Shown here: positions 1 through 19,711 of the stretch, in pieces
How positions within the stretch are numbered: the stretch's first letter is position 1
Layout of the letters: each line of letters begins with the position of its first letter
From: Escherichia coli
GTDB lineage: Bacteria; Pseudomonadota; Gammaproteobacteria; Enterobacterales; Enterobacteriaceae
Length of the DNA stretch: 21,033 bases
Strand: one strand, 5' to 3'
Assembly: GCF_003334335.1 (NCBI RefSeq)
Contig: NZ_QOWQ01000051.1
Notes under the pieces: generated by a model
What the model was told of the DNA's origin: nothing
What the model saw: only the letters and a program-made list of their open reading frames with translations
The model's database searches: none
Made by a program: the position numbers and the translations under genes

Positions 1-171
1 TCCATAAATTAACCTTCATTTGATGCTGGATTGAACATATCAAAATCAGGCAATTACACAAATCTATGTACAGGCTCGCCATGGACAGAAACTACCTGGC
101 GTCAGTCCTTGCGGGGAGCGGGCTTTCGTAGTAATACCCCGACTCTCCCCGTCCTTAAACACAACCCCCAC

Positions 172-942
172 TCACCACAACCTAAACTCATCCGCATCCT
201 GCCATGCCGGAAACTTTTCTCTATATTCCCGCAATGCTGCCATCGACAGCTCCGCATCAATGCGCGTTGCCTGATGCGCGTCGGCAGTAGCGATAATCTC
301 TCCTTGCGGATTAATCACCCGGCTGTCACCGCGATAATGGCAGCCGTTGCCATCGCTGCCGACGCGATTGCATCCCGCCACATACGCCTGATTCTCAATC
401 GCGCGGGCCGTCAGCAATGCCTGCCAGTGCAGAGAGCGCGGAGCAGGCCAGTTGGCGACGTACAGGGCGAGGTCATAATCGTTGAGATTGCGCGACCACA
501 CAGGAAAACGTAAGTCGTAGCACACCAGCGGCAAAATACGCCAGCCGCGCCATTCCACAATCACTCGCGCATTGCCCGCTTTATAATGTAGATGCTCATC
601 TGCCATGCGGAACAGATGACGCTTATCATAAAAATGTACCGTGCCGCCCGGCTCAACCAGCAAAAAGCGGTTAACCGAACCAGACTCCGTTTGTAATGCA
701 ACACTGCCTGCAATCAGCGCATTGCACTGCTGCGCCTTAGCTGTCATCCAGTTCACTACGTCATCTTGTGCTAGCGACGAAGCTGCCGCTTCCATGGCAA
801 AGCCGCTGGTAAACATCTCCGGTAGAACGATCACATCGCGCCCGGTAATACCTTCCAGTTGACGATCAAAATGACGCAGGTTGGCAGGACCATCCATCCA
901 CACCAGTGGTTGCTGCAAAAGCGTAATCTTCAAACCAGGCAC
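172..942 (-). CDS. yafV: Carbon-nitrogen hydrolase (nitrilase superfamily), omega-amidase-like YafV
   Basis: Track ORF 172..951 (259 aa) begins at a TTG; a GTG three codons in (942) gives MPGLK... and 256 aa, the length I recall for K-12 YafV. Nitrilase-family Glu/Lys/Cys context is visible (VLPEMF, YDKRHLF, LVCYDLRFP). Start choice is from memory. Confidence 0.85.
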   Translation of the reverse strand: MPGLKITLLQQPLVWMDGPANLRHFDRQLEGITGRDVIVLPEMFTSGFAMEAAASSLAQDDVVNWMTAKAQQCNALIAGSVALQTESGSVNRFLLVEPGGTVHFYDKRHLFRMADEHLHYKAGNARVIVEWRGWRILPLVCYDLRFPVWSRNLNDYDLALYVANWPAPRSLHWQALLTARAIENQAYVAGCNRVGSDGNGCHYRGDSRVINPQGEIIATADAHQATRIDAELSMAALREYREKFPAWQDADEFRLW

Positions 943-1095
943 GGTGTACAACTCCTTTATGCGAAGGGTTTTATAACTTTAACACCTTATCAGGCAGTTG
1001 CCTTAGCGCAGAATAAATTGATAACAAATGCTGATATTGGAAATATCTGATTTGCAAATTATCGTGTTATCGCCAGGCTTTAGGAGGTTAATAAC

Positions 1096-1569
1096 ATGGG
1101 CAGGATAAGCTCGGGAGGAATGATGTTTAAGGCAATAACGACAGTCGCCGCTCTGGTCATCGCCACCAGTGCAATGGCGCAGGATGATTTAACCATTAGC
1201 AGCCTTGCAAAGGGCGAAACCACCAAAGCTGCATTTAATCAGATGGTACAAGGGCATAAGCTGCCTGCCTGGGTGATGAAAGGCGGTACTTATACTCCCG
1301 CACAAACCGTAACGTTGGGAGATGAGACGTATCAGGTGATGAGCGCGTGCAAACCGCATGACTGTGGCTCGCAACGTATCGCTGTGATGTGGTCCGAGAA
1401 ATCTAATCAGATGACGGGGCTGTTCTCGACTATTGATGAGAAAACGTCGCAAGAGAAACTCACCTGGCTGAATGTGAACGATGCGCTTTCGATTGATGGT
1501 AAAACGGTGTTGTTCGCGGCGTTGACCGGCAGCCTGGAAAACCATCCGGATGGCTTTAATTTTAAATAA
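1096..1569 (+). CDS. ivy: Inhibitor of vertebrate (C-type) lysozyme, periplasmic
   Basis: 157 aa ORF with an N-terminal signal peptide (…ATSAMAQDD) and the CKPHDC loop motif characteristic of Ivy. Strong SD AGGAGG at 1083-1088, 7 nt upstream of the ATG. Confidence 0.9.
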   Translation: MGRISSGGMMFKAITTVAALVIATSAMAQDDLTISSLAKGETTKAAFNQMVQGHKLPAWVMKGGTYTPAQTVTLGDETYQVMSACKPHDCGSQRIAVMWSEKSNQMTGLFSTIDEKTSQEKLTWLNVNDALSIDGKTVLFAALTGSLENHPDGFNFK

Positions 1570-1583
1570 TTAGCGGATAAAGA

Positions 1584-1605
1584 AACGGAGCCTTTCGGCT
1601 CCGTT
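1584..1605. terminator. Bidirectional rho-independent terminator hairpin between convergent ivy and fadE
   Basis: Perfect 9-bp stem aacggagcc / ggctccgtt with a tttc loop, lying between the ivy stop (1567-1569) and the fadE stop (1612-1614). Flanked by T-rich runs on both strands (attcattt on plus, tctttat on minus). Confidence 0.55.
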
Positions 1606-1611
1606 ATTCAT

Positions 1612-4056
1612 TTACGCGGCTTCAACTTTCCGCACTTTCTCCGGCAACTTTACCGGCTTCGTCGCCAGCTCTTCCGGATCAAAGTCATCAACGTTAATAC
1701 TGCGCAGACGGCTTTCTTCAGCTTTCACCAGAATAGCGGCTTCATCTTTATCAATCAGCCCCTTCACCAGCGCGTTGTGCGCCAGTTCATCCAGACGGGT
1801 AAACGGCAGGTTTTTACCCAGCTCTTTACAGATCCGCTGATGAATTGGGTCGGCGGCAATCACATCCACCAGCGCCTCTTCCAGCAAGCCAACCGGATTA
1901 TGCTCGCTCGGCGTCAGGTACTGACCGCGACCAATGCGGGAACGGGTGGCGTTCGGCACTTGTAAAATCTTCGCCACTTTATGATCCAGCTTGTCAGAAG
2001 GTGCCAGATAATGACGTCCGGTCGGGAAGATCACCACATTCAGCAGCCCGGCAACCACGCGGTTCGGGAAGTTTTGCAGTAAATCATCCATCGCCTGTTC
2101 AGCCTGATACAGCGCATCTTGTACGCCCCAGTGCACCAGCGGCAGGTCGGCTTCATTACGGCCTTCGTCGTCATAACGCTTCAGCACGGCAGAGGCGAGG
2201 TAGAGCTGGCTTAAAATATCCCCCAGACGGGCCGAGATGCGCTCGCGACGTTTCAGGCTGCCGCCCAGCACTGCCATCGAGACATCAGAAAGCAGGGCGA
2301 GGTTGGCGCTCAGGCGGTTCAGGTGCTGATAGTAGCGTTTAGTGGCATCGCCGGTTGGCGTGCTGCTGGTTAAACCGCGCGTCAGGCCCAGCCAGAAGCT
2401 GCGAACTTTGTTGCTACCGACGTGACCGATATGTTTGAACAACAGTTTATCGAACGCGTTGACGTCATTGTTCTTCGCCGCTTCCATCTCTTCCAGCACG
2501 TACGGATGGCAACGAATCGCTCCTTGTCCGAAGATCATCATGCTGCGGGTCAGAATGTTAGCCCCTTCAACGGTGATGGCAATCGGTGCGCCCTGGTAAG
2601 CACGCGCCAGGAAGTTGCTTTGCCCGAGCATAATGCCTTTACCGCCGGTAATATCCATCGCATCAATAATCGACTGCTGCCCGCGGTGGGTACAGTGATA
2701 CTTAACGATAGCCGACAGCACGGCAGGTTTTTCGCCGAGCATAATGCCGTAGGTAATCAGCGATGCCGCAGCATCCATCACGTAGGCATTACCGGCAATA
2801 CGCGCCAGCGGCTCTTCAATCCCTTCCATCTTACCAATAGAGATTTTGAACTGACGGCGAATGTGAGCATACGCGCCGGTTGCCAGCGCTACCGATTTCA
2901 CGCCGCCGGTTGAGTTGGAAGGCAGGGTGATGCCGCGGCCTACCGAGAGGCACTCCACCAGCATCCGCCAGCCTTGCCCGGCCATTTTCGGCCCGCCGAT
3001 GATGTAATCGATCGGCACGAAGACATCTTTACCGCGCGTCGGTCCGTTCTGGAACGGTACGTTCAGCGGGAAGTGGCGACGACCAATTTCCACGCCCGGC
3101 GTGGTGGTTGGGATCAGCGCACAGGTAATGCCTAAATCTTCTGCACCGCCGAGTAATTTTTCCGGGTCGGAGAGTTTAAACGCCAGCCCAAGCACGGTCG
3201 CAATCGGTGCCAGCGTAATGTAGCGTTTGTTCCAGGTCAGACGCATCCCCAGCACCTGCTGGCCCTGCCATTCGCCCATGCAGACAATCCCGGTGTCCGG
3301 AATCGCGCCCGCATCGGAACCCGCTTCCGGGCTGGTCAGTGCAAAGCAGGGGATCTCCTGACCACGCGCCAGACGCGGCAGATAGTGATCTTTCTGCTCG
3401 TCAGTGCCGTAATGTTGCAACAGTTCGCCCGGGCCTAATGAGTTTGGCACGCCGACGGTAATCGCCAGGATCCCGCTCACGCCGGAGAGTTTTTGCAGCA
3501 CGCGAGACTGGGCATAAGCCGAGAACTCCAGCCCGCCGTACTCTTTTTTGATGATCATCGCGAAGAAACGATGCTCTTTAAGGTACGCCCACAACTCCGG
3601 CGGCAGATCCGCCAGCTCATGGGTGATCTGGAAATCATTCGCCATCCGGCAGGCTTCTTCTACCGGGCCGTCGAGAAACGCTTGCTCTTCGGCGGTCAGG
3701 CGCGGCTGCGGATAGTTATGCAGCTTTTTCCAGTCCGGCTTGCCCTGGAACAAGTCGCCCTCCCACCAGGTGGTGCCCGCATCAATCGCTTCTTTCTCAG
3801 TGCGCGACATCGGCGGCATCACCTTACGGAAACCGCGAAATACCGGCGCGGAAATCATCGACTTACGCATAGGCGCAAAGTTAAATGGCACGAGGATAAT
3901 GGCCAGAGGCACCAGTACCCACGCCGACCACAGACCAGCAACGCCGAGGGCGGCTGTCCAGGCGAGCAAAATCAGACTGCTGATAAATAAGCTCACGCGG
4001 TGATAGAACAACGCGCCGAGCAGGACAACCGTAGCGAGAATACTCAAAATCATCAT
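1612..4056 (-). CDS. fadE: Acyl-CoA dehydrogenase FadE (fatty acid beta-oxidation)
   Basis: Track ORF is 840 aa from 4134. The ATG at 4056 ([14 protein letters not shown]…) gives 814 aa, matching the FadE length I recall, with N-terminal hydrophobic segments and an acyl-CoA dehydrogenase body. An AGGGG Shine-Dalgarno lies just upstream of 4056. Confidence 0.9.
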
Positions 4057-4077
4057 AACGAAAAGCCCCTTACTTGT

Positions 4078-4094
4078 AGGAGGTCTGACCACTT
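4078..4094 (-). promoter_or_regulatory. Candidate FadR operator upstream of fadE
   Basis: On the minus strand this reads AAGTGGTCAGACCTCCT, close to the FadR box consensus with a TGGTC-N-GACC core. It sits about 30 nt upstream of the fadE start. Motif match by eye only. Confidence 0.4.
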
Positions 4095-4295
4095 GTGATG
4101 ATATGGTTGTAGTGGATGTAAAAACATTTAGCAATATGTTTACAATATAATTACAACAAAGCTCACATTGTTGCTGTTTTTATCCGCACTTCAGGTCAAA
4201 AAGTCCTGGTCATAGCACCTGCCCGTACTTCTCGCTTTTGGCGGTATCCGGTACACTGCATTTTGTCTATTACATTTATGCTGAAGGATATCCTC

Positions 4296-4874
4296 ATGTA
4301 CCAGGATCTTATTCGTAACGAACTGAACGAAGCGGCGGAAACGCTGGCTAACTTTTTAAAAGATGACGCCAATATTCACGCCATTCAGCGCGCGGCGGTC
4401 CTGTTAGCAGACAGCTTTAAAGCCGGTGGCAAAGTGCTTTCCTGCGGCAACGGCGGTTCCCATTGCGACGCTATGCACTTTGCCGAAGAGTTGACCGGTC
4501 GCTACCGTGAAAACCGTCCGGGCTACCCGGCGATTGCTATTTCTGACGTTAGTCATATTTCCTGCGTCGGTAATGATTTCGGTTTCAATGATATTTTCTC
4601 CCGCTACGTTGAAGCGGTAGGTCGCGAAGGCGATGTACTGCTGGGGATCTCCACCTCCGGTAACTCTGCAAACGTGATCAAAGCGATCGCAGCGGCGCGT
4701 GAGAAGGGAATGAAAGTGATCACCCTGACCGGTAAAGACGGCGGCAAAATGGCTGGCACGGCGGATATCGAAATTCGCGTACCGCACTTTGGTTATGCCG
4801 ACCGCATTCAGGAGATTCACATTAAAGTGATCCATATCCTGATCCAGTTGATTGAAAAAGAGATGGTTAAGTAA
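4296..4874 (+). CDS. gmhA: Sedoheptulose-7-phosphate isomerase (SIS domain), LPS core heptose biosynthesis
   Basis: Track ORF starts at 4263; the internal ATG at 4296 ([10 protein letters not shown]…) gives 192 aa, the length I recall for GmhA/LpcA. SD-like AAGGAT precedes it. Confidence 0.9.
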
Positions 4875-4880
4875 GTCTGG

Positions 4881-5017
4881 CGTAGGCCGGATAAGACGTT
4901 TACGCCGCATCCGGCATTTGTGCGCTGATGCCTGATGCGACGCTGACGCGTCTTATCATGCCTACAAATCTGTACGCGAACCGTAGGCCGAATAATGCGT
5001 TCACGCCGCATCCGACC
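4881..5017. repeat. REP/BIME cluster (three REP palindromes) between gmhA and yafJ
   Basis: Imperfect palindromes of the E. coli REP type: gtaggccggataagacgtttacgccgcatccggca, gcctgatgcgacgctgacgcgtcttatcatgcctac and a third copy at 4981-5016. Confidence 0.8.
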
Positions 5018-5079
5018 TGAAAATTCTTAAATCAATCTTCGCCGGGGGCCATGCGCTCCCGCTGTTGTGGAGGTTACCC

Positions 5080-5847
5080 ATGTGCGAATTGCTCGGGATG
5101 AGCGCCAACGTCCCTACCGATATCTGCTTTAGTTTCACCGGGCTTGTACAGCGTGGTGGTGGAACCGGGCCACATAAAGATGGCTGGGGCATTACCTTTT
5201 ACGAAGGTAAAGGCTGTCGCACATTTAAAGATCCACAACCCAGCTTTAATTCCCCCATCGCCAAACTTGTCCAGGACTACCCGATAAAATCCTGTTCGGT
5301 GGTGGCTCATATTCGCCAGGCTAATCGGGGCGAGGTGGCGCTGGAAAATACTCACCCATTTACCCGCGAGTTATGGGGGCGTAACTGGACTTATGCCCAT
5401 AACGGACAACTGACGGGCTACAAATCACTGGAAACCGGCAACTTCCGCCCGGTAGGCGAAACCGACAGCGAAAAAGCCTTCTGCTGGCTCCTGCATAAAT
5501 TAACGCAGCGTTACCCGCGCACACCGGGCAACATGGCGGCGGTATTTAAATATATCGCCTCACTGGCGGATGAACTGCGGCAGAAGGGCGTTTTCAACAT
5601 GCTGCTTTCGGACGGGCGCTATGTAATGGCGTATTGCTCGACTAATTTACACTGGATCACCCGCCGCGCGCCGTTTGGCGTGGCAACGTTGCTGGATCAG
5701 GATGTGGAAATCGACTTCAGCTCGCAGACCACACCGAATGATGTGGTCACGGTGATTGCAACACAGCCGCTGACGGGCAATGAAACCTGGCAAAAGATTA
5801 TGCCAGGCGAATGGCGCTTATTTTGCCTCGGGGAGCGTGTAGTTTGA
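5080..5847 (+). CDS. yafJ: Class II (Ntn-type) glutamine amidotransferase-like protein YafJ
   Basis: Track ORF starts at 5065; the ATG at 5080 gives MCELLGM… with Cys at position 2, the class II GATase nucleophile arrangement, and 255 aa. GGAGG SD at 5069-5073. Confidence 0.85.
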
Positions 5848-6558
5848 TGCCAGTTGTGGCTGCACAACTTCGTGGCTTAACGGCTTGCTGACCACGTAAC
5901 GACCATTGACCACAGAAACGGTTGGTGGCTTACGGGTTTGCTCAAAGTAGTCGTAACCCGGCTTCAGTTGCTCCCAGAAGTCCTTAAAGTTGGAATATTT
6001 ATGGCGCTTCATATTGGCGTCGGTCATGCGGAACGGGTAAATACTCACTTGCACGCTCGGCTGACCAAACACCAGCGCACCAGTAACGAACTGGAATATC
6101 TCATCAATACCCTGATTGGTCATTGCGTAGCAGCCGATGGAAACACAATCGCCGTGGATCATCAGGTATTTCCCTTCATAACCATGCGCACGGTCATAGG
6201 CATTGGGGAAACCAATATTAATCGCTTTGTAGTAACGGCTGTCTGGTTTTAACTGATTACGCTGGACGCTATAAAACCCTTCCGGGCTTTTGAAATCGCC
6301 CTGACGCTGTTTTGGCCCTAAGCCGCCGGAATATTTACAGATTTTATAGCTGTCGAGCAGTTGATATTGCTCGCCCATTTTGACGTAGAGATCGAGCGTA
6401 CGTTCTTCCTTGAAGATCTGGATGTAGACAGGGGATCCCATCAACTGCTGCTTATACTCTTTGCTCACAGGCGTGGTAGAGCTACTGCTGCCCAGCAAAC
6501 CGGCAAATGAAACGCACGGGATCAACAACATCGCAAGAATTAATGCGATTTTACGCAT
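5818..6558 (-). CDS. yafK: L,D-transpeptidase-fold (YkuD) periplasmic protein YafK
   Basis: 246 aa with an N-terminal signal peptide and the YkuD catalytic region [12 protein letters not shown]. Its 3' end overlaps the 3' end of convergent yafJ by 30 bp. Confidence 0.85.
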
Positions 6559-6713
6559 ACTGCTTATTCCTTGATAAAACGGTTACACACGCCAGGACGG
6601 CAAAATGGATCCCAAATCGGAATAGTCTGGATTTGGAAGGCTCACATTATCACCAAAAGAGTTTTACGCAAGCCTGTCGGCGCAGGGTTTACAAATTTCA
6701 TCGGAAGCGGGCT

Positions 6714-6992
6714 TTACCCAAAGAGCGCCGCGTGAGTTCCAGTTCTCTCAAATCGTAAAAGTTTATCGGTAAGTTTGTAAATCAGGATCCAGTCCGGTTC
6801 GACATGAGCATCGCGATAACCTTTCCATGAACCTTGCAGCGGGTGGTCTTTATAAACAGCTGGAAGCGGTAAAGTATTATTGATAAGAAGCGTCATAAGA
6901 TATTTCAATTTATTCATATCCTTATGACGCTTTTGTGCAAGTTTTACATCCTTTGAATATTGTCCCGAGTATTCAATATCCCTTTGAATCAT
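6714..6992 (-). CDS. yafQ: YafQ toxin (RelE-fold, ribosome-dependent mRNA interferase)
   Basis: 92 aa ORF MIQRDIEYSGQYSKDVKLAQKRHKD… lying 2 nt downstream of dinJ on the same strand. Recognised from memory as YafQ. Confidence 0.9.
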   Translation of the reverse strand: MIQRDIEYSGQYSKDVKLAQKRHKDMNKLKYLMTLLINNTLPLPAVYKDHPLQGSWKGYRDAHVEPDWILIYKLTDKLLRFERTGTHAALFG

Positions 6993-6994
6993 AT

Positions 6995-7255
6995 TTAAAT
7001 TCCTAATTTATCAAATAAATCATCGGCGTCTTTGGCCTTATGAACATCAATGCCAGCTTCGCTGTTTTTGATTGATTGAATGGTTAATTGATTAGGCTCG
7101 CGTAAATCAAACGGCAATGCCTTTTCACGCGCGACCTTTGTGAGGGTTATGCGAACCAGGTCAGAGATGGTCAGCCCCATCCCGGCCAGTACGTCCGCTG
7201 CCTGATTCTTCAGATCTTCATCGATTCGGGCGCGAACAAACGCGTTAGCAGCCAT
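6995..7255 (-). CDS. dinJ: DinJ antitoxin (RHH DNA-binding)
   Basis: 86 aa ORF MAANAFVRARIDEDLKNQAADVLAGMGLTISDLVRI…, immediately upstream of yafQ with a LexA box in its promoter. Confidence 0.9.
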   Translation of the reverse strand: MAANAFVRARIDEDLKNQAADVLAGMGLTISDLVRITLTKVAREKALPFDLREPNQLTIQSIKNSEAGIDVHKAKDADDLFDKLGI

Positions 7256-7271
7256 TGGGGTATCTCCTGTG

Positions 7272-7287
7272 CTGTATATTTATTCAG
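7272..7287 (-). promoter_or_regulatory. LexA (SOS) box in the dinJ promoter
   Basis: Plus strand ctgtatatttattcag; minus strand CTGAATAAATATACAG, fitting the CTG-N10-CAG SOS box pattern. Located 17-32 nt upstream of the dinJ start codon. Confidence 0.7.
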
Positions 7288-7464
7288 CTTGAATTGTAGC
7301 TCAAATGAGCAACAGCGACAATCCATGAGTAATTTAATAAACGGATGTTTTTACATAATTAACTGAAATATATATGTTAATTTTATAATAATGGTTTATT
7401 AAGTTTGTTCAGAAACGATCCGGGATACACTGCAACATTAAAGCATGACCAGCCATTATTGAGT

Positions 7465-8214
7465 ATGTCCTTGCCGTCGATTCCATCCTTTGTATTGTCG
7501 GGATTACTGTTGATTTGTTTGCCGTTTTCTTCATTTGCCAGCGCCACCACATCACATATCTCTTTCAGCTACGCCGCCCGCCAGCGGATGCAAAACCGTG
7601 CGCGTTTATTAAAACAGTACCAAACTCATCTGAAAAAGCAGGCCAGCTATATTGTGGAAGGCAATGCCGAAAGCAAAAGGGCGCTACGCCAGCACAACCG
7701 GGAGCAGATAAAACAGCATCCAGAATGGTTTCCTGCTCCGCTCAAGGCGAGTGACAGACGCTGGCAGGCGCTGGCGGAAAACAACCACTTTTTAAGCAGC
7801 GACCATCTGCATAACATTACCGAAGTGGCGATTCACCGCCTGGAGCAGCAGCTTGGCAAGCCTTACGTCTGGGGCGGTACGCGGCCTGATAAAGGCTTTG
7901 ACTGTAGCGGGTTGGTTTTTTATGCCTACAACAAGATCCTTGAGGCTAAGCTCCCGCGCACGGCCAATGAGATGTACCACTATCGCCGGGCAACGATTGT
8001 GGCGAACAACGACCTGCGCCGGGGAGATTTGCTGTTTTTCCATATCCACAGCCGCGAGATAGCCGATCATATGGGCGTGTATTTGGGCGATGGGCAATTT
8101 ATCGAGTCGCCACGTACCGGCGAAACCATTCGGATAAGCCGATTAGCCGAACCTTTCTGGCAGGACCATTTTTTGGGCGCGCGCAGGATTTTGACGGAAG
8201 AGACGATTTTGTAG
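7465..8214 (+). CDS. yafL: NlpC/P60-family putative peptidoglycan endopeptidase lipoprotein YafL
   Basis: Track ORF starts at a TTG (7405); the ATG at 7465 gives 249 aa with a signal/lipobox-like N-terminus. NlpC/P60 catalytic Cys context GFDCSGLVFYAY and downstream His are present. Confidence 0.8.
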   Translation: MSLPSIPSFVLSGLLLICLPFSSFASATTSHISFSYAARQRMQNRARLLKQYQTHLKKQASYIVEGNAESKRALRQHNREQIKQHPEWFPAPLKASDRRWQALAENNHFLSSDHLHNITEVAIHRLEQQLGKPYVWGGTRPDKGFDCSGLVFYAYNKILEAKLPRTANEMYHYRRATIVANNDLRRGDLLFFHIHSREIADHMGVYLGDGQFIESPRTGETIRISRLAEPFWQDHFLGARRILTEETIL

Positions 8215-8296
8215 GACGGATAAGGCGTTTACGCCGCATCCGGCAGTTGTACGCAGGTGCCTGATGCGACGCTGGCGCGTCTTATCATGCCTACGA
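8211..8296. repeat. REP pair (BIME) between yafL and rayT
   Basis: gtaggacggataaggcgtttacgccgcatccggca overlaps the yafL stop, followed by gcctgatgcgacgctggcgcgtcttatcatgcctac. Confidence 0.8.
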
Positions 8297-8389
8297 GCCC
8301 GCGAATATTTGCGAGCCGCTTTCCCGATATAAAACAACCTCATTGCCAACCTTTCCTTTTCTTCTTACCGTTGAGAAAAAGGAGTCGCC

Positions 8390-8887
8390 ATGTCTGAATA
8401 TCGTCGTTATTACATCAAGGGGGGAACATGGTTTTTCACGGTGAATTTACGAAATCGTCGAAGCCAACTTTTGACCACCCAGTACCAGATGCTCCGTCAC
8501 GCCATTATTAAAGTTAAGCGAGACAGGCCTTTTGAAATCAACGCCTGGGTCGTTTTGCCAGAGCATATGCACTGTATCTGGACATTACCTGAAGGCGATG
8601 ATGATTTTTCCTCGCGCTGGCGGGAAATTAAAAAGCAATTTACCCATGCTTGTGGATTGAAAAATATCTGGCAACCACGTTTTTGGGAGCACGCCATCCG
8701 CAATACCAAAGATTATAGGCATCATGTTGATTATATTTATATAAATCCAGTAAAGCATGGTTGGGTAAAGCAAGTGAGTGATTGGCCATTCTCAACGTTC
8801 CATCGCGATGTCGCGCGAGGGTTATATCCCATCGATTGGGCGGGGGACGTAACGGATTTTAGTGCCGGGGAGCGTATCATTTCATAA
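8390..8887 (+). CDS. rayT: REP-associated tyrosine transposase RayT (TnpA-REP, IS200/IS605 HUH family)
   Basis: 165 aa with the HUH motif (PEHMHCIW) and a C-terminal Tyr region. REP arrays flank it on both sides, the REPtron arrangement. Confidence 0.85.
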   Translation: MSEYRRYYIKGGTWFFTVNLRNRRSQLLTTQYQMLRHAIIKVKRDRPFEINAWVVLPEHMHCIWTLPEGDDDFSSRWREIKKQFTHACGLKNIWQPRFWEHAIRNTKDYRHHVDYIYINPVKHGWVKQVSDWPFSTFHRDVARGLYPIDWAGDVTDFSAGERIIS

Positions 8888-8890
8888 TTG

Positions 8891-9095
8891 TGCGCAGATG
8901 CCTGATGCGACGCTAGCGCGTCTTATCATGCCTACAAACTTGTGCCGGATCGGTAGGCCGGATAAGGCGTTTATGCCGCATCCGGCAGTTATGCGCAGAT
9001 GCCTGATGCGACGCTGGCGCGTCTTATCATGCCTACAAACTTGTGCCTGAACGGTAGGACGGATAAGGCGTTCACGCCGCATCCGGCAGTTGTGC
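8891..9095. repeat. REP/BIME array (at least four REP palindromes) between rayT and lfhA
   Basis: Alternating copies of gcctgatgcgacgct(a/g)gcgcgtcttatcatgcctac and ggtagg(c/a)cggataaggcgtt(t/c)a(t/c)gccgcatccggca. The array ends 16 nt before the lfhA stop. Confidence 0.85.
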
Positions 9096-9110
9096 ACCAA
9101 TGCTGGATAC

Positions 9111-11204
9111 TTACATCAACGCCCCCATAATCTTCAACTCCAGCTCATCCGGCACTTCGTTATACGACAGCACATGCAGCCCCGGCGCAAACAACCTTGC
9201 ATAACGCGCCAGCAAAGGGCGCAGCTGCGGTGGCACCAGCAGCACCGGGTCTTTCCCCGCCGCTTTCATCTGCTCTTTCACCTGTGGCATCGTACTCTGG
9301 AACTGGTTGAGCATATTCGGATCGACCGGCACGCTGTCGAGCATCACTTTCCCGCCCTGTTGCGCCTGATTCACCACGTTGGTCAGCAGATTTTCCAGCT
9401 CATTATTCAGCGTATACACCGTCAGCTCCTGCTTGCGAACGAACGGATGGGTAATGCTGCGCCGCAATGCCAGGCGCACATCGGCCGCCAGCAGAATATG
9501 ATCTTTCGTCACCGTGCTACTGGCGACCAGCACGGTGGCGATGGTGACGATATCGCGCAGGGAAACGCCTTCGGTCAGCAGCGCCCGGTACACTTTCAGC
9601 AACTGGCTGTAATTGAGCGCCGCGCTCAAATCTTCCGCCAGACGCGGTGCCGTCGACGATAAACGGTTATGCAACTGCGTAATATCATCATAGTTAAACA
9701 AATCAGGAATATAGCTGCGCACAATCTTATTTACATGGGTAGCGATCACGCTGGCGCTGTCGATCACCTGATACCCCATATTCAGCGCCTTCGCTTTCTG
9801 CGCCGCCTGGATCCAGGTGACCGGCATCCCGTACGCCGGGTCGTTCCCCTGCACGCCGTCAATCTCGCCGTAGGTTTCGCTGGAGGGCAGGGCCATCAGT
9901 TTATCCGCCGGAATATCCGCTTCATCAGCCTTTATGCCGTTGATGAAAATGGCGTACTGACTGGGCTTAAGGCGGAAGTTTTCCCGAATGCGGATCTCCG
10001 GCAGCAGCACGCCGTTGCCGTCAGAAATCACCTGCCGCACGCCGCGAATCCGCTGGGTGAGCGGGTTACCCTGTGCTTTGTCCACCAGCGCCACCAGTTT
10101 GTAACCGAGGCTTAAACTGATAGGCTCGATCAGCGGAATGGTTTCCCAACTGACCTGCTGCTCGCTGGTTTCGGTGATGGTGCGGGTCAGCGTTTCGAGG
10201 CTTTTCTCTTCCGCCTCCGCCGCCAGCGGCTGTTTGCTCATCCGCCAGCCGGTAAAACCAAGCAGGGCGCTGAACAGCAAAAACGGCAGGTGCGGCATTC
10301 CCGGTACCACCGCCAGCACGAACATAATCCCGGTGGCGGTGTAGAGCACCGACGGGCTTGCCAGCAGCTGGTTACGCACGTCATGGGCGATATCGCCGTT
10401 GTCGCTGACGCGGGTGACGATAATCGCCGCCGCGGTGGAGAGCAGCAGGGAAGGGATCTGCGCCACCAGGCCGTCGCCGATGGTCATCAGCACATACTGC
10501 TGGAAGGCAGCATCGGCGCTCAGGTTGTATTTGAAGATCCCGATACAGACGCCGCCGATCAGGTTGATCGCCAGAATCATCATCCCGGCGATGGCGTCCC
10601 CGCGCACAAACTTCGATGCCCCGTCCATCGCGCCGTAGAAATCGGCCTCGCTGGCAACATCTTTACGCCGGGTTTGCGCCTGCGCCTGGTTGATCAATCC
10701 GGCGTTAAGATCGGCGTCAATCGCCATCTGTTTGCCGGGCATCGCGTCTAAGGTAAAGCGGGCAGAAACCTCGGAAATACGCTCGGCCCCTTTGGTGACG
10801 ACAATAAAGTTGATGATCATCAGGATGATAAACACCACGAAGCCGACGACAAAGTTGCCGCCGATCACCACCTGACCAAACGACTCAATCACCTTACCCG
10901 CCGCGCCCGCGCCGAGATGCCCGTGCAGCAGCACCACGCGCGTAGAAGCAACGTTAAGCGTCAGGCGCATTAAGGTGGTGATCAGCAAAATGGTCGGGAA
11001 CAGGCTGAATTCCAGCGGTCGTTTCGCCGACACCGCCACCAGCAGCACCATCACCGCCAGCACAATGTTGAAGGTGAACAGAATATCCAGCAGCGCAGGC
11101 GGCAGCGGCAAAATAACCATCGCCAGAATACACAGGATCACCAGCGGCACGCCGAGATTGCCGCCGCGCAGCAGCGCGAGGAACGATTTAGTTGTTTTCG
11201 CCAT
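9111..11204 (-). CDS. lfhA: Flagellar type III export apparatus protein, FlhA homolog (Flag-2 LfhA)
   Basis: 697 aa with N-terminal transmembrane segments and the FHIPEP signature region (VILPLPPALLDILFTFNIVLAVMVLL). A GAGGTG Shine-Dalgarno precedes the ATG. Clearly distinct in sequence from what I recall of E. coli Flag-1 FlhA. Confidence 0.85.
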   Translation of the reverse strand: MAKTTKSFLALLRGGNLGVPLVILCILAMVILPLPPALLDILFTFNIVLAVMVLLVAVSAKRPLEFSLFPTILLITTLMRLTLNVASTRVVLLHGHLGAGAAGKVIESFGQVVIGGNFVVGFVVFIILMIINFIVVTKGAERISEVSARFTLDAMPGKQMAIDADLNAGLINQAQAQTRRKDVASEADFYGAMDGASKFVRGDAIAGMMILAINLIGGVCIGIFKYNLSADAAFQQYVLMTIGDGLVAQIPSLLLSTAAAIIVTRVSDNGDIAHDVRNQLLASPSVLYTATGIMFVLAVVPGMPHLPFLLFSALLGFTGWRMSKQPLAAEAEEKSLETLTRTITETSEQQVSWETIPLIEPISLSLGYKLVALVDKAQGNPLTQRIRGVRQVISDGNGVLLPEIRIRENFRLKPSQYAIFINGIKADEADIPADKLMALPSSETYGEIDGVQGNDPAYGMPVTWIQAAQKAKALNMGYQVIDSASVIATHVNKIVRSYIPDLFNYDDITQLHNRLSSTAPRLAEDLSAALNYSQLLKVYRALLTEGVSLRDIVTIATVLVASSTVTKDHILLAADVRLALRRSITHPFVRKQELTVYTLNNELENLLTNVVNQAQQGGKVMLDSVPVDPNMLNQFQSTMPQVKEQMKAAGKDPVLLVPPQLRPLLARYARLFAPGLHVLSYNEVPDELELKIMGALM

Positions 11205-12327
11205 CCAGTTTAAGCACCTCTTTGGGAATGGAAATATGTCTGTTCAGGGCCGGGCGCGGCTGTGCACCCTCGCGCCAGTGTTTCATTTGCAGGACGTAGG
11301 TCAGAACGTGGGCGATGGCCCGGTAAAGCTGAAACGGAATTTGCTGGTTCACCTGGGTGGTGTAGTAAACCGAGCGCGCCAGTCGCGGGAACTCGACCAC
11401 TTCCACCTGATTCTCAGCGGCGACCTGGCGAATATAGAGGGCGATTTCATCGGTGCCTTTCGCCACCACAAACGGCGCGGCGGCGCGCGACGAGTCATAC
11501 TGCAACGCCACGGCGTAGTGGGTCGGGTTGGTGATCACCACGTTGGCTTTCGGCACCACTTTGCGAATTTGCCCCATCGCCAACTGCCGTTGCAGACGCC
11601 GCACGCGCGCCTTCACTTCCGGCTTGCCTTCCTGGTTTTTATACTCTTCTTTCAGCTCCTGTTTGGTCATCTTCAGCCCTTTGGTAAACAGGGCTTTCGC
11701 CAGCGGCACGTCGATTAACGCAAAGAAGATAAACAGGATGACAAAGTTGCGCATCACGCAGGCGTAGAGCGATAAACCCTCATTCATCGCCAGTTTGAAC
11801 GGTAGCGCCTGCAGGCCGAGAAAGGCGGCAAAGTTATTGTGCAGGCTTACCCACAGCATCACCAGCACCACCACCGACTTCACCGTCATCTTTCCCGTTT
11901 CCGCCAGATGTTCACTGGAAAACAGCCGCCCAATGCCTTTTAACGGGCTGATTTTGCTGAAATCCGGGAGGATTTTTTTCGGCAGAAACAGCCAGCCGCC
12001 GGGCACCAGCGAAGAGAGTAGCGCGGCAGCGGGCATCGGCAGCAAGGTGAGAATAAACTTGCCGAGTATTAACAGGTGATGGCGCAGAAACTGGCCGATC
12101 ACCTCCGGGTTATTAATCTCCTGCGCGTACTGATGCACGCTGATAAAACTCTCGCGCACAAAATCGGCATACCACGGGAAGCTGCTGGAGATCACCACAA
12201 ACGCCGCAAACAGGCTCGCCGCCAGCCCCATATCCTTCGAGCGCGGCAGTTGCCCCTCTTCACGCGCTTTACGCAGCTTTTGCGCCGAGGGTTTTTCTGT
12301 TTTTTCTTCGCTGCTGCTATCCGCCAT
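11188..12327 (-). CDS. lfhB: Flagellar export switch protein, FlhB homolog (Flag-2 LfhB)
   Basis: 379 aa with an FlhB-like N-terminus (…EKTEKPSAQKLRKAREEGQLPRSKD) and the conserved NPTH autocleavage motif (VVITNPTHYAVAL). Its stop overlaps the lfhA start by 17 nt. Confidence 0.85.
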   Translation of the reverse strand: MADSSSEEKTEKPSAQKLRKAREEGQLPRSKDMGLAASLFAAFVVISSSFPWYADFVRESFISVHQYAQEINNPEVIGQFLRHHLLILGKFILTLLPMPAAALLSSLVPGGWLFLPKKILPDFSKISPLKGIGRLFSSEHLAETGKMTVKSVVVLVMLWVSLHNNFAAFLGLQALPFKLAMNEGLSLYACVMRNFVILFIFFALIDVPLAKALFTKGLKMTKQELKEEYKNQEGKPEVKARVRRLQRQLAMGQIRKVVPKANVVITNPTHYAVALQYDSSRAAAPFVVAKGTDEIALYIRQVAAENQVEVVEFPRLARSVYYTTQVNQQIPFQLYRAIAHVLTYVLQMKHWREGAQPRPALNRHISIPKEVLKLDGENN

Positions 12328-13099
12328 AGTGACCTTTCAGCGCGTCGAGTTGCTGCAACACAAAATTCGCCAGATGCAGATAGTGATCCGGCAGGTTGTA
12401 GAGCAGGGTGGCAAAGCAGACCAGCCCCGCCAGCATGTTGATGGGAAAACCGAGTGAAAAAAGGTTCAGCGGCGGCGCAATGCGGTTGAGCAGGCCAAAG
12501 CAGCCCTGCACAATCAGCATGATAAAAGTGGTTGGCAGCGCCAGCAGCGATGCGGACGCCAGCACCCAGCTAAAGGCCAGCGCGATGGTGCGCAGGGTTT
12601 GCGGATGCAGCGCGTTGCCAATCGGCCAGTAGGTAAAGCCCTTATACAGCACACTCACCAGCAGCAGATGCCCGTCCATGGCAAAAAACAGCAGGATCGC
12701 GTAGACGTTGATGAGCTCCGCCAGCACGGTGGTCGATGCGCCACTGCTCGGGTCGTTCATCACCGCCATGCTCATCCCCATATTGAACGAGAGAATTTGC
12801 CCGGCCAGCTGTAGCGCCAGAAACAAAAACTGAAACATCAGCCCGAATAACATGCCCCATAAAATTTGCTCCACCGTCAGGATCAGGCTGTTGAGTGAAA
12901 GCAGGTCGTGGGGAATGGGATGCGGAATTAACGGCGTGATGATGATTGCCAGCGCCAGCGACAAAATAATCCGCACGCGCACGGTCAGGGCGCTGTTATC
13001 CAGCACTGGCACATAGCGCAGAAACGCCATAATGCGCACAAAGGGAAACCACAGCCCCAGCGCCAGATCCATCAGTTGCGTAACGTCGCTTGTGCGCAT
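12317..13099 (-). CDS. lfiR: Flagellar export gate protein, FliR homolog (Flag-2 LfiR)
   Basis: Polytopic membrane protein. The start at 13099 (MRTSDVTQLMDLALG…, 260 aa) sits 2 nt upstream of the lfiQ stop codon; the track offers an upstream start at 13150 (277 aa) that would lie inside lfiQ. Confidence 0.75.
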   Translation of the reverse strand: MRTSDVTQLMDLALGLWFPFVRIMAFLRYVPVLDNSALTVRVRIILSLALAIIITPLIPHPIPHDLLSLNSLILTVEQILWGMLFGLMFQFLFLALQLAGQILSFNMGMSMAVMNDPSSGASTTVLAELINVYAILLFFAMDGHLLLVSVLYKGFTYWPIGNALHPQTLRTIALAFSWVLASASLLALPTTFIMLIVQGCFGLLNRIAPPLNLFSLGFPINMLAGLVCFATLLYNLPDHYLHLANFVLQQLDALKGHYGG

Positions 13100-13100
13100 C

Positions 13101-13373
13101 TTAATGCACCAGCAGGGCGGCCTGGGTAAACAGGTGAATGCAGAGATCATGCAACTGGATAATCATCCATTTGCCGCACACGCCCAGCACCACCAGCGTG
13201 ACAATCAGCCTCGGCAAAAAGCTCAGGGTCTGTTCGTTAATCTGCGTTACCGCCTGGAACACGCTCACCAGCAGGCCGACCAGCAAACTCGGCACCACCA
13301 GTACCGAAACCAGCAAAATCACTACTTTTATGCCGCTGGCGACAATGTCGGCGGCAACGTCTACGGTCAACAT
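13101..13373 (-). CDS. lfiQ: Flagellar export gate protein, FliQ homolog (Flag-2 LfiQ)
   Basis: 90 aa with two hydrophobic helices, placed between the FliP and FliR homologs as in fliPQR operons. Confidence 0.8.
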   Translation of the reverse strand: MLTVDVAADIVASGIKVVILLVSVLVVPSLLVGLLVSVFQAVTQINEQTLSFLPRLIVTLVVLGVCGKWMIIQLHDLCIHLFTQAALLVH

Positions 13374-13375
13374 AA

Positions 13376-14128
13376 TCAGCCCAGCCCCAGCCCGCGAATG
13401 CTGGTGGTGAGCGTGCCGATGGTCAGCGACCAGCCGTCGATCAGCACAAACAGCATCAGCTTAAAGGGCAGCGAAACAATCAGCGGCGACAGCATCATCA
13501 TCCCCATCGCCATCAGTACGCTTGCGACAATCAGGTCGATAACCAGAAACGGGATGTAAATCATAAAGCCAATCTGGAAAGCGGTTTTCAGCTCGCTCAA
13601 CACATAGGCGGGCACCACGATAGAGAGATCCTGGTCGGCGGCATTGCCCTTCGCGCCTCCGATGGTCATGATTTGCGCCATCGCTTTTTTGTCGGTCTGC
13701 GCCAGCATAAAGCGTTTGAGTGGCGTCGCGGCGGTGCTTAACGCATCGGTCAGGGTAATCTGATCGTTTTCGAACGGCACTACTGCGTGGTCGTAAATAT
13801 TGAGCCAGATGGGGCGCATCACCAGCATGGTGAGGGAGAGCGCAATGCCAATCAGAATGCGGTTTGGCGGCGTTTGTTGCAGCCCTAGCGCCTGGCGCAG
13901 CAGCGACAGCACGATAATAAAGCGCGCAAAGCAGGTCATCATCAGCGCCATCGTCGGCAGCAAACCGACGAGGGTCATCAGAATCAGTACCTGAATTTTG
14001 ACGCTGTACTCCTGAGTGTTGCCGTGGGTGACCACGTTAAGCAGCGCAATATCGCCGCCCTGGGCGATTGCCAGCGGCGCAAGCGCCAGCAGCCCAAGGC
14101 CCAGCGTCAGTTGAGTGCGGCGTTTCAT
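13376..14128 (-). CDS. lfiP: Flagellar export gate protein, FliP homolog (Flag-2 LfiP)
   Basis: 250 aa with an N-terminal signal peptide (…LALAPLAIAQ) and a FliP-like transmembrane core. Its start overlaps the lfiN stop by 4 nt. Confidence 0.85.
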   Translation of the reverse strand: MKRRTQLTLGLGLLALAPLAIAQGGDIALLNVVTHGNTQEYSVKIQVLILMTLVGLLPTMALMMTCFARFIIVLSLLRQALGLQQTPPNRILIGIALSLTMLVMRPIWLNIYDHAVVPFENDQITLTDALSTAATPLKRFMLAQTDKKAMAQIMTIGGAKGNAADQDLSIVVPAYVLSELKTAFQIGFMIYIPFLVIDLIVASVLMAMGMMMLSPLIVSLPFKLMLFVLIDGWSLTIGTLTTSIRGLGLG

Positions 14129-14496
14129 GGTGCCAGGTCGTTGATATCGCGGGTGTTAAATTCCAGCACGCGCAGGCCGTACTTCTCGTTGACCACCACC
14201 ACTTCCGCTTTGCCCAGCAGGATATTGTTCACTTTAATATCCAGCGGCTCCCCGGCGAGTTTATCCAGCTCAATCACCGTGTCGTCGTCGATGTTAAGGA
14301 GGTCGGCTAACATGATCTCCACCGACGACACTTCCAGCGTTAAGGTCACCGGAATGCGTTTTAGCAGCGTCATCGAGTCGGAAAAACGGTCTTCCAGGCG
14401 GGTGACCAGCGTTTCAGCGTCGGCGGATTTTGCGACAGGCGCAACTTCATCGGTGAGGCCAAAATCCCCGGCTAAAATATCTTCTTGCTTACTCAT
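14125..14496 (-). CDS. lfiN: Flagellar motor switch / C-ring protein, FliN homolog (Flag-2 LfiN)
   Basis: SpoA-like C-terminal domain (…VTLTLEVSSVEIMLADLLNIDDDTVIELDKLAGEPLDIKVNNILLGKAEVVVV). The start at 14496 (MSKQEDI…) is chosen for coupling to the lfiM stop; the track's longest start is 14556. Confidence 0.75.
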   Translation of the reverse strand: MSKQEDILAGDFGLTDEVAPVAKSADAETLVTRLEDRFSDSMTLLKRIPVTLTLEVSSVEIMLADLLNIDDDTVIELDKLAGEPLDIKVNNILLGKAEVVVVNEKYGLRVLEFNTRDINDLAP

Positions 14497-15340
14497 GGCT
14501 ATTCTCATTTTTGCCCGCCAGCTCCGACAAAAACAGTTTGTCTTTGTCTTCCACAATCAGGGCGCTAAATAATTCAGATTGCCCAATCGCCACCGGGAAC
14601 GTTTCTCCCAGCGAGATGGGTAAAATATCCCCGGCTTTTATCTGCGTGAGATCCGCGACATTCATCGATAGCTCGGCGATTTTGACGTTCAGGGTCAGCG
14701 GCAGGGAGCGGATGATCTCTTTAATCAGGGCCGGTTTATTGACGGATTTCGCCACCTGCTGCGGTTTACTGTGCTCGCTGTGGCGGATCAGATTTAAAAT
14801 AAAATCGGTGTGGGCGTCGTCGAGCAAAATACGAAAACAGCTCTCTTCATCGCCCGCAAGGGTAAAGGTTAATTGATACGCCCAGTGGGTAATCACCGTG
14901 CTGCTGTCCAGCTTTAATTTCAGCGCAATACCGGAGGTTTGCAGATTAAATATCAGCGTGCAGATATCCAGCGCGAGTCGGTTCTTTAATCGTGTTTCGG
15001 TTTTGGTCGGCAGGCCGTTATGCGCTTTCGCCTCTTCAAGAGACGACTCCAGACCATAAAAATTGCCCAGCAGCATTAACAGCAAGGAGCGATCAATATC
15101 AAACGCCAGATGCCCGACCTGGGAAATCATTAGTTCAGCGTTTTTATTAATAATATCCATTTCGCAGCCAATCTTTTTTAAGGTGATATTGCTGCGATGC
15201 TTTTTGAGAAAGTAGCTGCCCAGATGCGAATCAATCACGTCAAAATTCCCCGTAAACAGGGTCGGCAGGTGATGGTAGGGGCGTCCGAGCCGATTACCTT
15301 CTAATTTAAAGATGCCTGGCGTTTTACTGTACTTCAGCAT
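14489..15340 (-). CDS. lfiM: Flagellar motor switch protein, FliM homolog (Flag-2 LfiM), short form
   Basis: 283 aa. The C-terminal region (…LTQIKAGDILPISLGETFPVAIGQSELF…) resembles the FliM SpoA-like domain. No LSQxEIDALL-type N-terminal peptide is present. Confidence 0.75.
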   Translation of the reverse strand: MLKYSKTPGIFKLEGNRLGRPYHHLPTLFTGNFDVIDSHLGSYFLKKHRSNITLKKIGCEMDIINKNAELMISQVGHLAFDIDRSLLLMLLGNFYGLESSLEEAKAHNGLPTKTETRLKNRLALDICTLIFNLQTSGIALKLKLDSSTVITHWAYQLTFTLAGDEESCFRILLDDAHTDFILNLIRHSEHSKPQQVAKSVNKPALIKEIIRSLPLTLNVKIAELSMNVADLTQIKAGDILPISLGETFPVAIGQSELFSALIVEDKDKLFLSELAGKNENSHE

Positions 15341-15485
15341 GGCTTACTTTCTCTGCTGTAATGGTATGGGCGATTTTGTGCACGCAAATCCGGCAGTGAC
15401 ACAAGGTGAGGTATTAAATAGAGGGGGAGTGAAAGGGGCAAATTATTAATAGGATGAAAAAATAATTAAATTATTAAAGGGCTAG

Positions 15486-15602
<117 letters not shown>

Positions 15603-15726
15603 ATGGATAACTCATTGTTTACCATAAAATAATATTTTTATTATCGTTTAATTCGAACTTGTTAATCCCGCCGGTGATACGCTTCACAATATCCTGTTTT
15701 CTGTCGCTACTGATATCGTTCACCCT

Positions 15727-16713
15727 ATGTCTGAACTTATTGCAACTGCCGCTTCCAGCATTAACGCTTTTACTCTGGCAAAGCGTGTCGCCGCATTTAA
15801 CGTGCCGGTGCTCATTCAGGGCGAAACCGGCGCGGGCAAAGAATGCGTGGCGAAATATATTCACACCGTAGCCTTTGGTGAAAATGATAACGCGCCCTAT
15901 ATCGGCGTGAACTGCGCAGCGATCCCGGAAAACATGCTGGAAGCTACATTATTTGGCTACGACAAAGGCGCATTTACCGGCGCAATTGCCAGTGTGCCAG
16001 GAAAAATGGAACTAGCGAATAACGGCACCTTATTACTCGATGAAATTGGCGATATGCCGCTGGCGCTACAGGCCAAAATATTACGCGTATTGCAGGAGCA
16101 ACAGGTTGAGCGATTAGGCAGCAACCGACAAATTAAACTCAATTTTCGCCTGATTGCCTGCACCAATAAAAACCTTGAACAGGAAGTGGCTGCCGGGCGT
16201 TTTCGTGAAGATCTCTATTATCGTCTGGCGGTTATTCCTATTACCATGCCGCCACTGCGTGAACGTCTGAACGATATTATTCCGCTGGCAGAGTCATTTA
16301 TAAAAAAGTACTCCACGGTGCTGGTGAAAAATATCACCCTTTCAGAATCTACCCGCCGGGCGCTGCTCAATTACCGCTGGCCCGGCAACGTGCGCCAGCT
16401 GGAGAACGCCATTCAGCGGGGAATGATTTTAAATCGCGACGGCGTGATTTACCCGGATGCCTTAGGCCTGCCGGAAACGGACGTTGCCGACCGCAGCGAA
16501 CTGCAATGGCCTGTTCAGCCCGCCGTCCACATTGCCGAAACCAGCGATTTGGGCCAGCACGGACGAAGCGCCCAGTATCAATATATCGCTGACCTGATGC
16601 GTAAATATCAGGGCAACCGCAGCAAAATCGCCGACCTGTTAGGCATTACCCCGCGCGCACTGCGCTATCGACTGGCCTCCATGCGCAAGCAAGGTATCGA
16701 AGTTTTCTCCTGA
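15727..16713 (+). CDS. lafK: Sigma54-dependent transcriptional activator (AAA+ plus HTH, no N-terminal regulatory domain), LafK-like
   Basis: 328 aa with Walker A GETGAGKE, the GAFTGA sigma54-contact loop, Walker B LLLDEIGDM and a C-terminal Fis-type HTH (…IADLLGITPRALRYRLASMRK). The AAA+ domain starts within the first few residues. An in-frame stop lies at 15649-15651 upstream. Confidence 0.85.
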   Translation: MSELIATAASSINAFTLAKRVAAFNVPVLIQGETGAGKECVAKYIHTVAFGENDNAPYIGVNCAAIPENMLEATLFGYDKGAFTGAIASVPGKMELANNGTLLLDEIGDMPLALQAKILRVLQEQQVERLGSNRQIKLNFRLIACTNKNLEQEVAAGRFREDLYYRLAVIPITMPPLRERLNDIIPLAESFIKKYSTVLVKNITLSESTRRALLNYRWPGNVRQLENAIQRGMILNRDGVIYPDALGLPETDVADRSELQWPVQPAVHIAETSDLGQHGRSAQYQYIADLMRKYQGNRSKIADLLGITPRALRYRLASMRKQGIEVFS

Positions 16714-16727
16714 CCCGGAAGTTAAAA

Positions 16728-17069
16728 ATGAGCATTACCACAATCAACAGCACCATGCAGGCGCAAATCATGCAGGACGTGCAGCGGATGCAGGCCAACG
16801 CCCAGGCGCCGGTGCTACCCGCCATGACCTTCAGTTCCACAGACCCGGACGTGTCGTTTAACCGCATTATGTACGGCGCGCTTGGTCATGTTGATCAGTT
16901 CCAGCAGGTGGCGGAGCTGCAGCAAACGGCTGTCGACACGGGCAAAAGTGATGACCTGGCAGGTGCGATGATCGCCAGCCAGCAGGCGTCGCTCTCTTTC
17001 TCCGCGCTGGTGCAGGTGCGCAATAAAATCGCCACCGGGTTTAACGACCTGATGAGTATGTCGATCTAA
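16728..17069 (+). CDS. lfiE: Flagellar hook-basal body protein, FliE homolog (Flag-2 LfiE)
   Basis: 113 aa small protein directly upstream of the FliF homolog, with a FliE-like C-terminal region (…ASQQASLSFSALVQVRNKIATGFNDLM). Confidence 0.75.
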   Translation: MSITTINSTMQAQIMQDVQRMQANAQAPVLPAMTFSSTDPDVSFNRIMYGALGHVDQFQQVAELQQTAVDTGKSDDLAGAMIASQQASLSFSALVQVRNKIATGFNDLMSMSI

Positions 17070-17073
17070 CCCT

Positions 17074-18720: not shown

Positions 18721-19708
18721 GAGCAACAGCTACCTGGAACAGGCGGCGATCCTGCTGCTGTGTCTGGGCGAAGAGGCGGCGGCGACGGTGATGCAAAAAC
18801 TCAGCCGCGAAGAAGTAGTGCGCCTGAGCGAAAACATGGCGCGGCTTTCCGGCGTCAAAACCAGCATGGCGCGCAAAGTGATCAATAACTTCTTTGATGA
18901 GTTCCGCGAACAGAGCGGGATCAACGGCGCATCGCGATCCATGTTGCAGGGTATTCTCAACAAAGCCCTCGGCACCGAGATCGCCAGCAGCGTGATCAAC
19001 GGCATCTACGGCGATGAGATCCGCTCGCGGATGGCGCGCCTGCAATGGGTGGAACCACGCCAGCTGGCGATGCTGATCTCCGAAGAGCATTTGCAATTAC
19101 AGGCGGTGTTCCTCGCGTTTCTGACGTCGGAAATCTCGGCGGCGGTGCTCTCGTATCTCAATGAATCGGTGCAAAACGAAATTCTCTATCGGGTGGCGAA
19201 ACTCAACGACGTTAACCGCGACGTGGTGGATGAACTGGACAGGCTGATCGAACGCGGCCTGTCGGTGCTCTCTGAACATGGCTCGAAGGTGAAAGGCATC
19301 AAACAGGCGGCGGATATCGTCAACCGCTTCCAGGGTAACCAGCAGGTGATCCTCGACCAGATGCGCGAGCGCGACGAAGAGGTGCTGGAGCAGCTCCAGG
19401 ATGAGATGTACGACTTCTTTATCCTCAGCCGCCAGAACGAAGAGGTACGTCGACGTCTGCTCGACGAAGTGCCGATGGAAGACTGGGCGGTGGCGCTGAA
19501 AGGCACCGAAGCCCTGTTGCGGCGCTCGATTTACGCGGTAATGCCAAAACGTCAGGTGCAACAACTGGAAGCGATCACCGCGCGCCTGGGGCCGGTGCCG
19601 GTCAGCCGTATCGAACAGATCCGCCGCGAAATCATGGGCATCGCCCGTGAACTGGAAGAGGCGGGCGAAATTCAGCTACAGCTCTTTGCGGAACAGACGG
19701 CGGAGTAA
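18698..19708 (+). CDS. lfiG: Flagellar rotor protein, FliG homolog (Flag-2 LfiG)
   Basis: 336 aa, alignable by eye to FliG throughout (ILLLCLGEEAAATVMQKLSREEV…; …EAGEIQL at the C-terminus). Overlaps the lfiF 3' end by 23 nt. Confidence 0.85.
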   Translation: MSELTTNKSNSYLEQAAILLLCLGEEAAATVMQKLSREEVVRLSENMARLSGVKTSMARKVINNFFDEFREQSGINGASRSMLQGILNKALGTEIASSVINGIYGDEIRSRMARLQWVEPRQLAMLISEEHLQLQAVFLAFLTSEISAAVLSYLNESVQNEILYRVAKLNDVNRDVVDELDRLIERGLSVLSEHGSKVKGIKQAADIVNRFQGNQQVILDQMRERDEEVLEQLQDEMYDFFILSRQNEEVRRRLLDEVPMEDWAVALKGTEALLRRSIYAVMPKRQVQQLEAITARLGPVPVSRIEQIRREIMGIARELEEAGEIQLQLFAEQTAE

Positions 19709-19711
19709 CCC

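Follow-up and report, generated by a model that had tools for sequence, protein, structure and literature searches.

The window, the whole stretch of 21,033 nt of E. coli DNA that was analysed, contains the fadE–gmhA locus, in which fadE lies on the minus strand. A 451-nt query across the feature under study matched 5424 of 5426 complete E. coli genomes, where it falls under the features fadE and lpcA (gmhA). Positions 78..10814 are 100% identical to K-12, and window coordinates were obtained by subtracting 239247 from the K-12 coordinate. The source of the window differs from K-12, and the divergence begins exactly at the K-12 lfhA'/lafU' deletion scar. Positions 10815..20957 carry a second (Flag-2, lateral) flagellar gene cluster with 99.95% identity to strain 720632, whose annotation gives internal stops for the flhA and fliH homologues. 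Insertion elements lie at both ends: positions 1..77 are the terminus of an IS1414 (IS256-like) element adjoining yafV, and positions 20958..21033 are an IS421 (IS4-like) element within the Flag-2 fliI gene, a right-hand junction shared with only one complete genome, TUM14664. Repeats of ~85–107 nt that are 90–94% identical, at 8211..8294 and 8888..9095, flank rayT, the REP-associated tyrosine transposase. A further copy lies at 15519..15603, and together these are presumably REP/BIME clusters.

The longest open reading frame for fadE occupies 1612..4134 on the minus strand, begins with TTG and encodes 840 aa. The preliminary description had this frame reaching 26 codons upstream of the ATG at 4056, an observation that is accurate since 4057..4134 comprises exactly 26 codons. 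The coding sequence of the acyl-CoA dehydrogenase itself lies at 1612..4056 on the minus strand (814 aa and stop) and coincides with the K-12 annotation of b0221 (240859..243303, 2445 nt; NP_414756.2). The same start is used by PGAP in a strain identical to the window, and the 814-aa translation, found on at least 1000 contigs, matches UniProt FADE_ECOLI exactly. The ATG (4054..4056, minus strand) is the same in 77 of 77 related loci and in a 31-genus alignment, in which the codon that follows it is not fixed (ATG, TTG or CTA). The agreement of these records and the constancy of the codon in the 77 related species identify ATG4056 as the real start, as had been proposed. AGGGG was found where it had been placed, at 4070..4066 on the minus strand, within the Shine-Dalgarno sequence AAGGGG (4066..4071, minus strand) 9 nt before the ATG; its counterparts in relatives are GGGAG or GGAG. 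It is the only Shine-Dalgarno-like sequence among the three candidate starts, and a search of the 20 nt before GTG4092 and before TTG4134 returned none. The in-frame GTG at 4090..4092 (minus strand), which lies within the operator described below, is the source of an obsolete 826-aa annotation. This form was found on 5 contigs, in older GenBank records only (e.g. AEE54908.1), and is a mis-annotation that persists in GenBank. In a database look-up of protein forms, the 840-aa form proved never to have been deposited. Papers on FadE biochemistry and on PPTP-seq said nothing about the N-terminus or the operator.

The extension had also been said to contain a FadR-box-like sequence. The 17-bp imperfect palindrome AAGTGGTCAGACCTCCT at 4078..4094 on the minus strand (4094..4078 in reading direction) is the only site in the window with two or fewer mismatches to ANCTGGTCNGACNTNTT, and has two. 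A symmetrised PWM was constructed from 11 K-12 FadR sites, with fadE left out, taken from the promoter regions of fadBA, fadIJ, fadL, fadD, fadH, fadM, fabA, fabB and iclR. The sites in these nine regions were those that we take to be the FadR sites of K-12, and a consensus search located all of them there. The fadE box scored 16.57 bits with the PWM built in this way, whereas no other 17-mer of the 21-kb window exceeded 10.02 bits; the PWM scan suggested in the preliminary description thus returned the box as the top match. When the 11 established sites were each left out in turn, their scores ranged from 0.7 to 19.5 bits, and 9 of 11 reached at least 12 bits. The palindrome also matches the published FadR consensus, aaCTGGTCnGACC(T/A)Gtt (PMC9329746). 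The same review describes fadE as directly repressed by FadR and, with credit to Campbell & Cronan 2002, the fadE FadR site as overlapping the start-site region (PMC9329746).

Conservation of the box was evaluated in other Enterobacterales. In 77 of 77 loci the fadE ATG was preceded by a box at a distance of 35–40 nt, so that the footprint is conserved throughout the orthologous promoters. The core GGTCnGACCTC was invariant, both in the 77 loci and in the 31-genus alignment, whereas the flanks and the spacer between box and ATG diverge. In Enterobacteriaceae the sequence of the box is AAGTGGTCAGACCTCCT; the form AACAGGTCAGACCTC[TC]T is that of Erwiniaceae, Yersiniaceae and Hafnia. Within Escherichia the sole variant is A or G at the central base (box position 9), which is N in the consensus, a polymorphism consistent with selection on the bases that FadR would contact. 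Chance resemblance to a degenerate consensus was considered as another explanation of the box. By our own arithmetic 21 kb should contain, counting both strands, ~0.5 sites with no more than two mismatches, and 1% of random 21-kb sequences attain the PWM score of 16.57. However, a chance match would not be expected to keep an invariant core in 77 species, at a fixed position before the same gene and among neighbouring bases that diverge, and the downstream gene belongs to the FadR regulon. The conservation data effectively exclude a chance match. The score, position and invariance of the box in Enterobacterales all fit a FadR operator, as the preliminary description had supposed.

The sequence upstream of the operator was analyzed by phylogenetic footprinting of 78 sequences anchored on the box. 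The arrangement TTG(C/A)TA-N17-TAnnnn was present in 77 of the 78, with a divergent 17-bp spacer. The candidate −35 hexamer is TTGCTA at 4129..4134 (minus strand); this sequence occurs in 54/78 and TTGATA in 23/78. Since this −35-like hexamer occupies 4134..4129, its first three bases, and hence its 5' half, are the TTG "start" of the longest open reading frame. The candidate −10 hexamer, TACAAC at 4106..4111 (minus strand), begins with TA and lies 17 bp after the −35-like hexamer; the footprint contains TACAAC in 53 of the 78 sequences, TAAAAC in 10 and TAAACC in 6. In the window 11 nt separate this conserved hexamer from the box downstream of it, a distance found in 55/78 sequences within a range of 4–15 nt. 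A scan of 3900..4400 for sigma-70 consensus promoters found nothing, and phylogenetic footprinting is therefore the basis of the promoter model. The geometry would place the transcription start near 4099, ~7 nt after the −10 hexamer, and the operator at ~+6 to +22. An alternative −10, TATCAT (4103..4098), would shift the start to ~4091, inside the box. TTG4134 is upstream of the transcript with either predicted −10. The conserved −10-like hexamer (4106..4111, minus strand) ends in C and not in the near-universal T, which suggests that the promoter is intrinsically weak and needs an activator or an alternative sigma factor. In standard media fadE is repressed. Its start is absent from the TSS supplements of Cappable-seq, Kim 2012 and Mendoza-Vargas 2009, and a 2022 review describes the fadE promoter as under-studied, with no dedicated start-site mapping.

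A second regulator acts in the same region. An ArcA ChIP-exo peak on fadE/lpcA is centred at K-12 243379, with fadE scored as repressed, and ArcA motifs were reported at K-12 243376–243390 and 243387–243401 (PMC3974632). These two overlapping 15-mers, from the supplement of that study, map to window positions 4129..4154 (both strands) and cover the −35-like hexamer, which is overlapped by the 243376–243390 motif. The direct repeat TTGTAA-N5-TTGTAA within 4129..4154 was present in 78 of 78 Enterobacterales sequences. Direct-repeat motifs under a ChIP peak thus overlap the core promoter, the arrangement of an ArcA-repressed promoter. Farther upstream, TGTGAGCTTTGTTGTA at 4152..4167 (minus strand) contains a conserved TGTGA half-site and is centred ~60 bp upstream of the predicted start. 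As a CRP site it has 3 mismatches in 10, all in the right half-site, and is too weak to claim; the review notes that whether CRP controls fadE directly has never been put to the test.

It is conceivable that the region upstream of the ATG is itself translated and that FadE is longer at its N-terminus, starting from GTG4092 (826 aa) or TTG4134 (840 aa). In Escherichia the upstream frame is open for 41 codons before the ATG, some in-frame start lies at least 12 codons upstream of it in 24/77 species, and a few GenBank records carry the 826-aa form. However, an in-frame start at least 26 codons upstream arises by chance in ~9% of random sequences of the same dinucleotide composition (about 7–9% for an open frame this long), so the open frame in Escherichia is unremarkable. 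Among the 77 fadE loci compared, all from other Enterobacterales species, the open stretch upstream of the ATG ranged from 4 to 68 codons (median 21), and in 49 of the 77 species no in-frame ATG, GTG or TTG occurs before the first stop. The distance from box to ATG was 35, 36, 37, 38, 39 and 40 nt in 2, 3, 5, 21, 44 and 2 species, respectively; all three phases therefore occur (47, 23 and 7 of 77 loci) and the frame is broken, with 1–5-nt indels in the spacer of the 31-genus alignment. In the 44 species with a distance of 39 nt between box and ATG, GTG4092 is out of frame. Calculated for each codon position, column entropy was strongly periodic in the first 30 codons downstream of the ATG (0.72/0.29/1.17) and flat upstream of it (0.85/0.79/0.85), indicating that codon periodicity stops at the ATG. 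Moreover, GTG4092 lies within an invariant protein-binding palindrome and TTG4134 within the conserved −35-like hexamer, both without a Shine-Dalgarno sequence, and the curated K-12, PGAP and UniProt entries alike give 814 aa. Neither a conserved in-frame start with a ribosome binding site nor a maintained frame with third-position-biased substitution was found, and a longer FadE is extremely improbable. The frame-breaking indels, the species lacking an upstream start and the absence of periodicity and of a Shine-Dalgarno sequence, together with the promoter footprint, uphold the proposal that 4057..4134 (minus strand) is promoter and operator DNA and not coding: the "26-codon extension" is the non-coding promoter and 5' leader of fadE.

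A role for the box in the mRNA and its use by other regulators were also considered. In the transcript the right arm of the box (ACCUCCU) might base-pair to AAGGGG or GGGAG and so hold back translation. A 5-bp stem, CUCCU/AGGGG, appeared in a terminator-like scan and in the MFE fold, and 88.6% of cells were able to pair across 30 species. However, an operator arm that bears CTCC is complementary to a Shine-Dalgarno sequence by construction, and GACCTCTT also occurs in other FadR sites, e.g. that of fadM. The fold energy was no better than that of shuffled sequences (z = +0.65; 145 of 200 shuffles at least as good), compensatory changes occurred in no pair and all measures fell inside the shuffle distribution. 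A leader hairpin that sequesters the Shine-Dalgarno sequence was rejected on these grounds and is very unlikely. An Rfam search of the leader returned no family; one sub-threshold match to the S15 leader was taken as chance.

A more substantial alternative is that the box serves chiefly as an operator for LldR (lactate) or PdhR (pyruvate), GntR proteins of the FadR subfamily, which would activate fadE instead of or beside repression by FadR. Both proteins gave a gSELEX peak at K-12 243432. The LldR paper names the exact fadE 17-mer as an LldR box, aligns AggaGGTCtGACCAcTT to that box with 12/14 matches and reports changes in fadE mRNA that depend on lldR; it was the only match in a full-text literature search for the fadE 17-mer. 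The PdhR paper likewise reports PdhR binding and pdhR-dependent expression of fadE. Since the region is an in-vitro gSELEX target of both LldR and PdhR and its 17-mer has been named an LldR box, FadR may not be its sole user. However, by the FadR PWM the box is as good a match as established FadR sites are, fadE has long been established as FadR-repressed, and the resolution of gSELEX is coarse. The TGGT…ACCA core is common to related GntR proteins, so that cross-binding in vitro is expected. The box given in the PdhR paper is elsewhere, at 4204..4220, in poorly conserved DNA, and an operator at the predicted ~+6 to +22 would occupy the position of a repressor and not that of an activator. Control chiefly by LldR or PdhR is therefore considered unlikely. 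The sequence at 4204..4220 (plus strand), TCCTGGTCATAGCACCT, has been published as a PdhR box and also as a second box for LldR; as a FadR site it scores only 4.8 bits, and the part of the fadE–gmhA spacer in which it falls is the least conserved. It is similarly doubtful that the single fadE operator is a docking site shared by FadR (acyl-CoA), LldR (lactate) and PdhR (pyruvate), with an activator-dependent non-canonical −10 (TACAAC). If this were true, competition at one invariant 17-mer would integrate three carbon signals. An Escherichia-only minor 826-aa isoform from the operator GTG is a much less likely variant of the same idea.

The reading preferred here, held with high confidence, is that 4057..4134 (minus strand) is the core promoter and 5' leader of fadE, that its operator is that of FadR and that translation proceeds from ATG4056. 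The identity of the operator (PWM), its invariance and position, the absence of upstream coding signatures and the −35/17/−10 geometry were computed here; repression of fadE by FadR and ArcA is taken from the literature. The footprint gives a testable model of the fadE promoter. In downstream order it would consist of the −35 TTGCTA (4134..4129) overlapped by ArcA, the 17-bp spacer, the −10 TACAAC (4111..4106), a start at ~4099, the operator for FadR at 4094..4078 (~+6 to +22), the Shine-Dalgarno sequence AAGGGG and ATG 4056. Without long-chain fatty acids, by analogy with other FadR-controlled genes, a FadR dimer would be bound at the operator, either immediately after the start point or spanning it. 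The operator lies within DNA that RNA polymerase must occupy and initiation would thus be blocked, so that we infer steric occlusion as the mechanism of FadR repression at fadE. Long-chain acyl-CoA would free the operator of FadR and allow transcription of fadE, and translation from ATG4056 would yield the 814-aa enzyme. ArcA over the −35 hexamer would provide an extra, anaerobic repression.

The feature examined here consists of the FadR operator of fadE, which is already known, and a long-corrected over-extension of the start codon. Its significance lies in little beyond annotation hygiene; the phylogenetically supported model of the core promoter would be a modest addition only. Longest-ORF start calling fails here because the false TTG and GTG starts lie within a −35-like hexamer and a repressor operator.

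Compared with the other E. coli FadR operators (fadBA ATCTGGTACGACCAGAT, fadIJ ATCAGGTCAGACCACTT, fadH, fadM and fadL site 1), the fadE box has the same 17-bp imperfect palindrome with a TGGTC-N-GACC core and a comparable PWM score. It is likewise a single site a few tens of nucleotides upstream of the start codon, at 38 nt compared with 42 (fadB), 43 (fadI), 46 (fadH) and 59 nt for other fad genes, and would similarly place the repressor at or just after the start point. There are also differences. At position 3, in the left flank, the fadE box carries G and the consensus C, the right arm is CCTCCT whereas the other fad operators have CC(T/A)GTT, and fadE has one FadR site while fadL and fadD each have two. 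The transcription start of fadE, unlike those of the genes served by the other fad operators, has not been classically mapped. The LldR and PdhR boxes (AAnTGGTCnGACCAnTT and AATTGGTnnnACCAATT) have the TGGT…ACCA palindromic core in common with the fadE box. However, their binding was shown only by gSELEX or by gel shift on larger fragments, and the claimed effect is activation, a poor fit to a site downstream of the start point. As regards the start codon, the original 826-aa yafH model resembles other mis-annotated longest-ORF N-terminal extensions, in which an in-frame GTG or TTG lacking a Shine-Dalgarno sequence is taken as the start. The yafH/FadE start call was later corrected (NP_414756 is now version 2), and the 826-aa form lingers in a few records. 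No difference from such errors was seen, and FadE is a textbook case in which the false starts fall within an operator and a −35-like hexamer.
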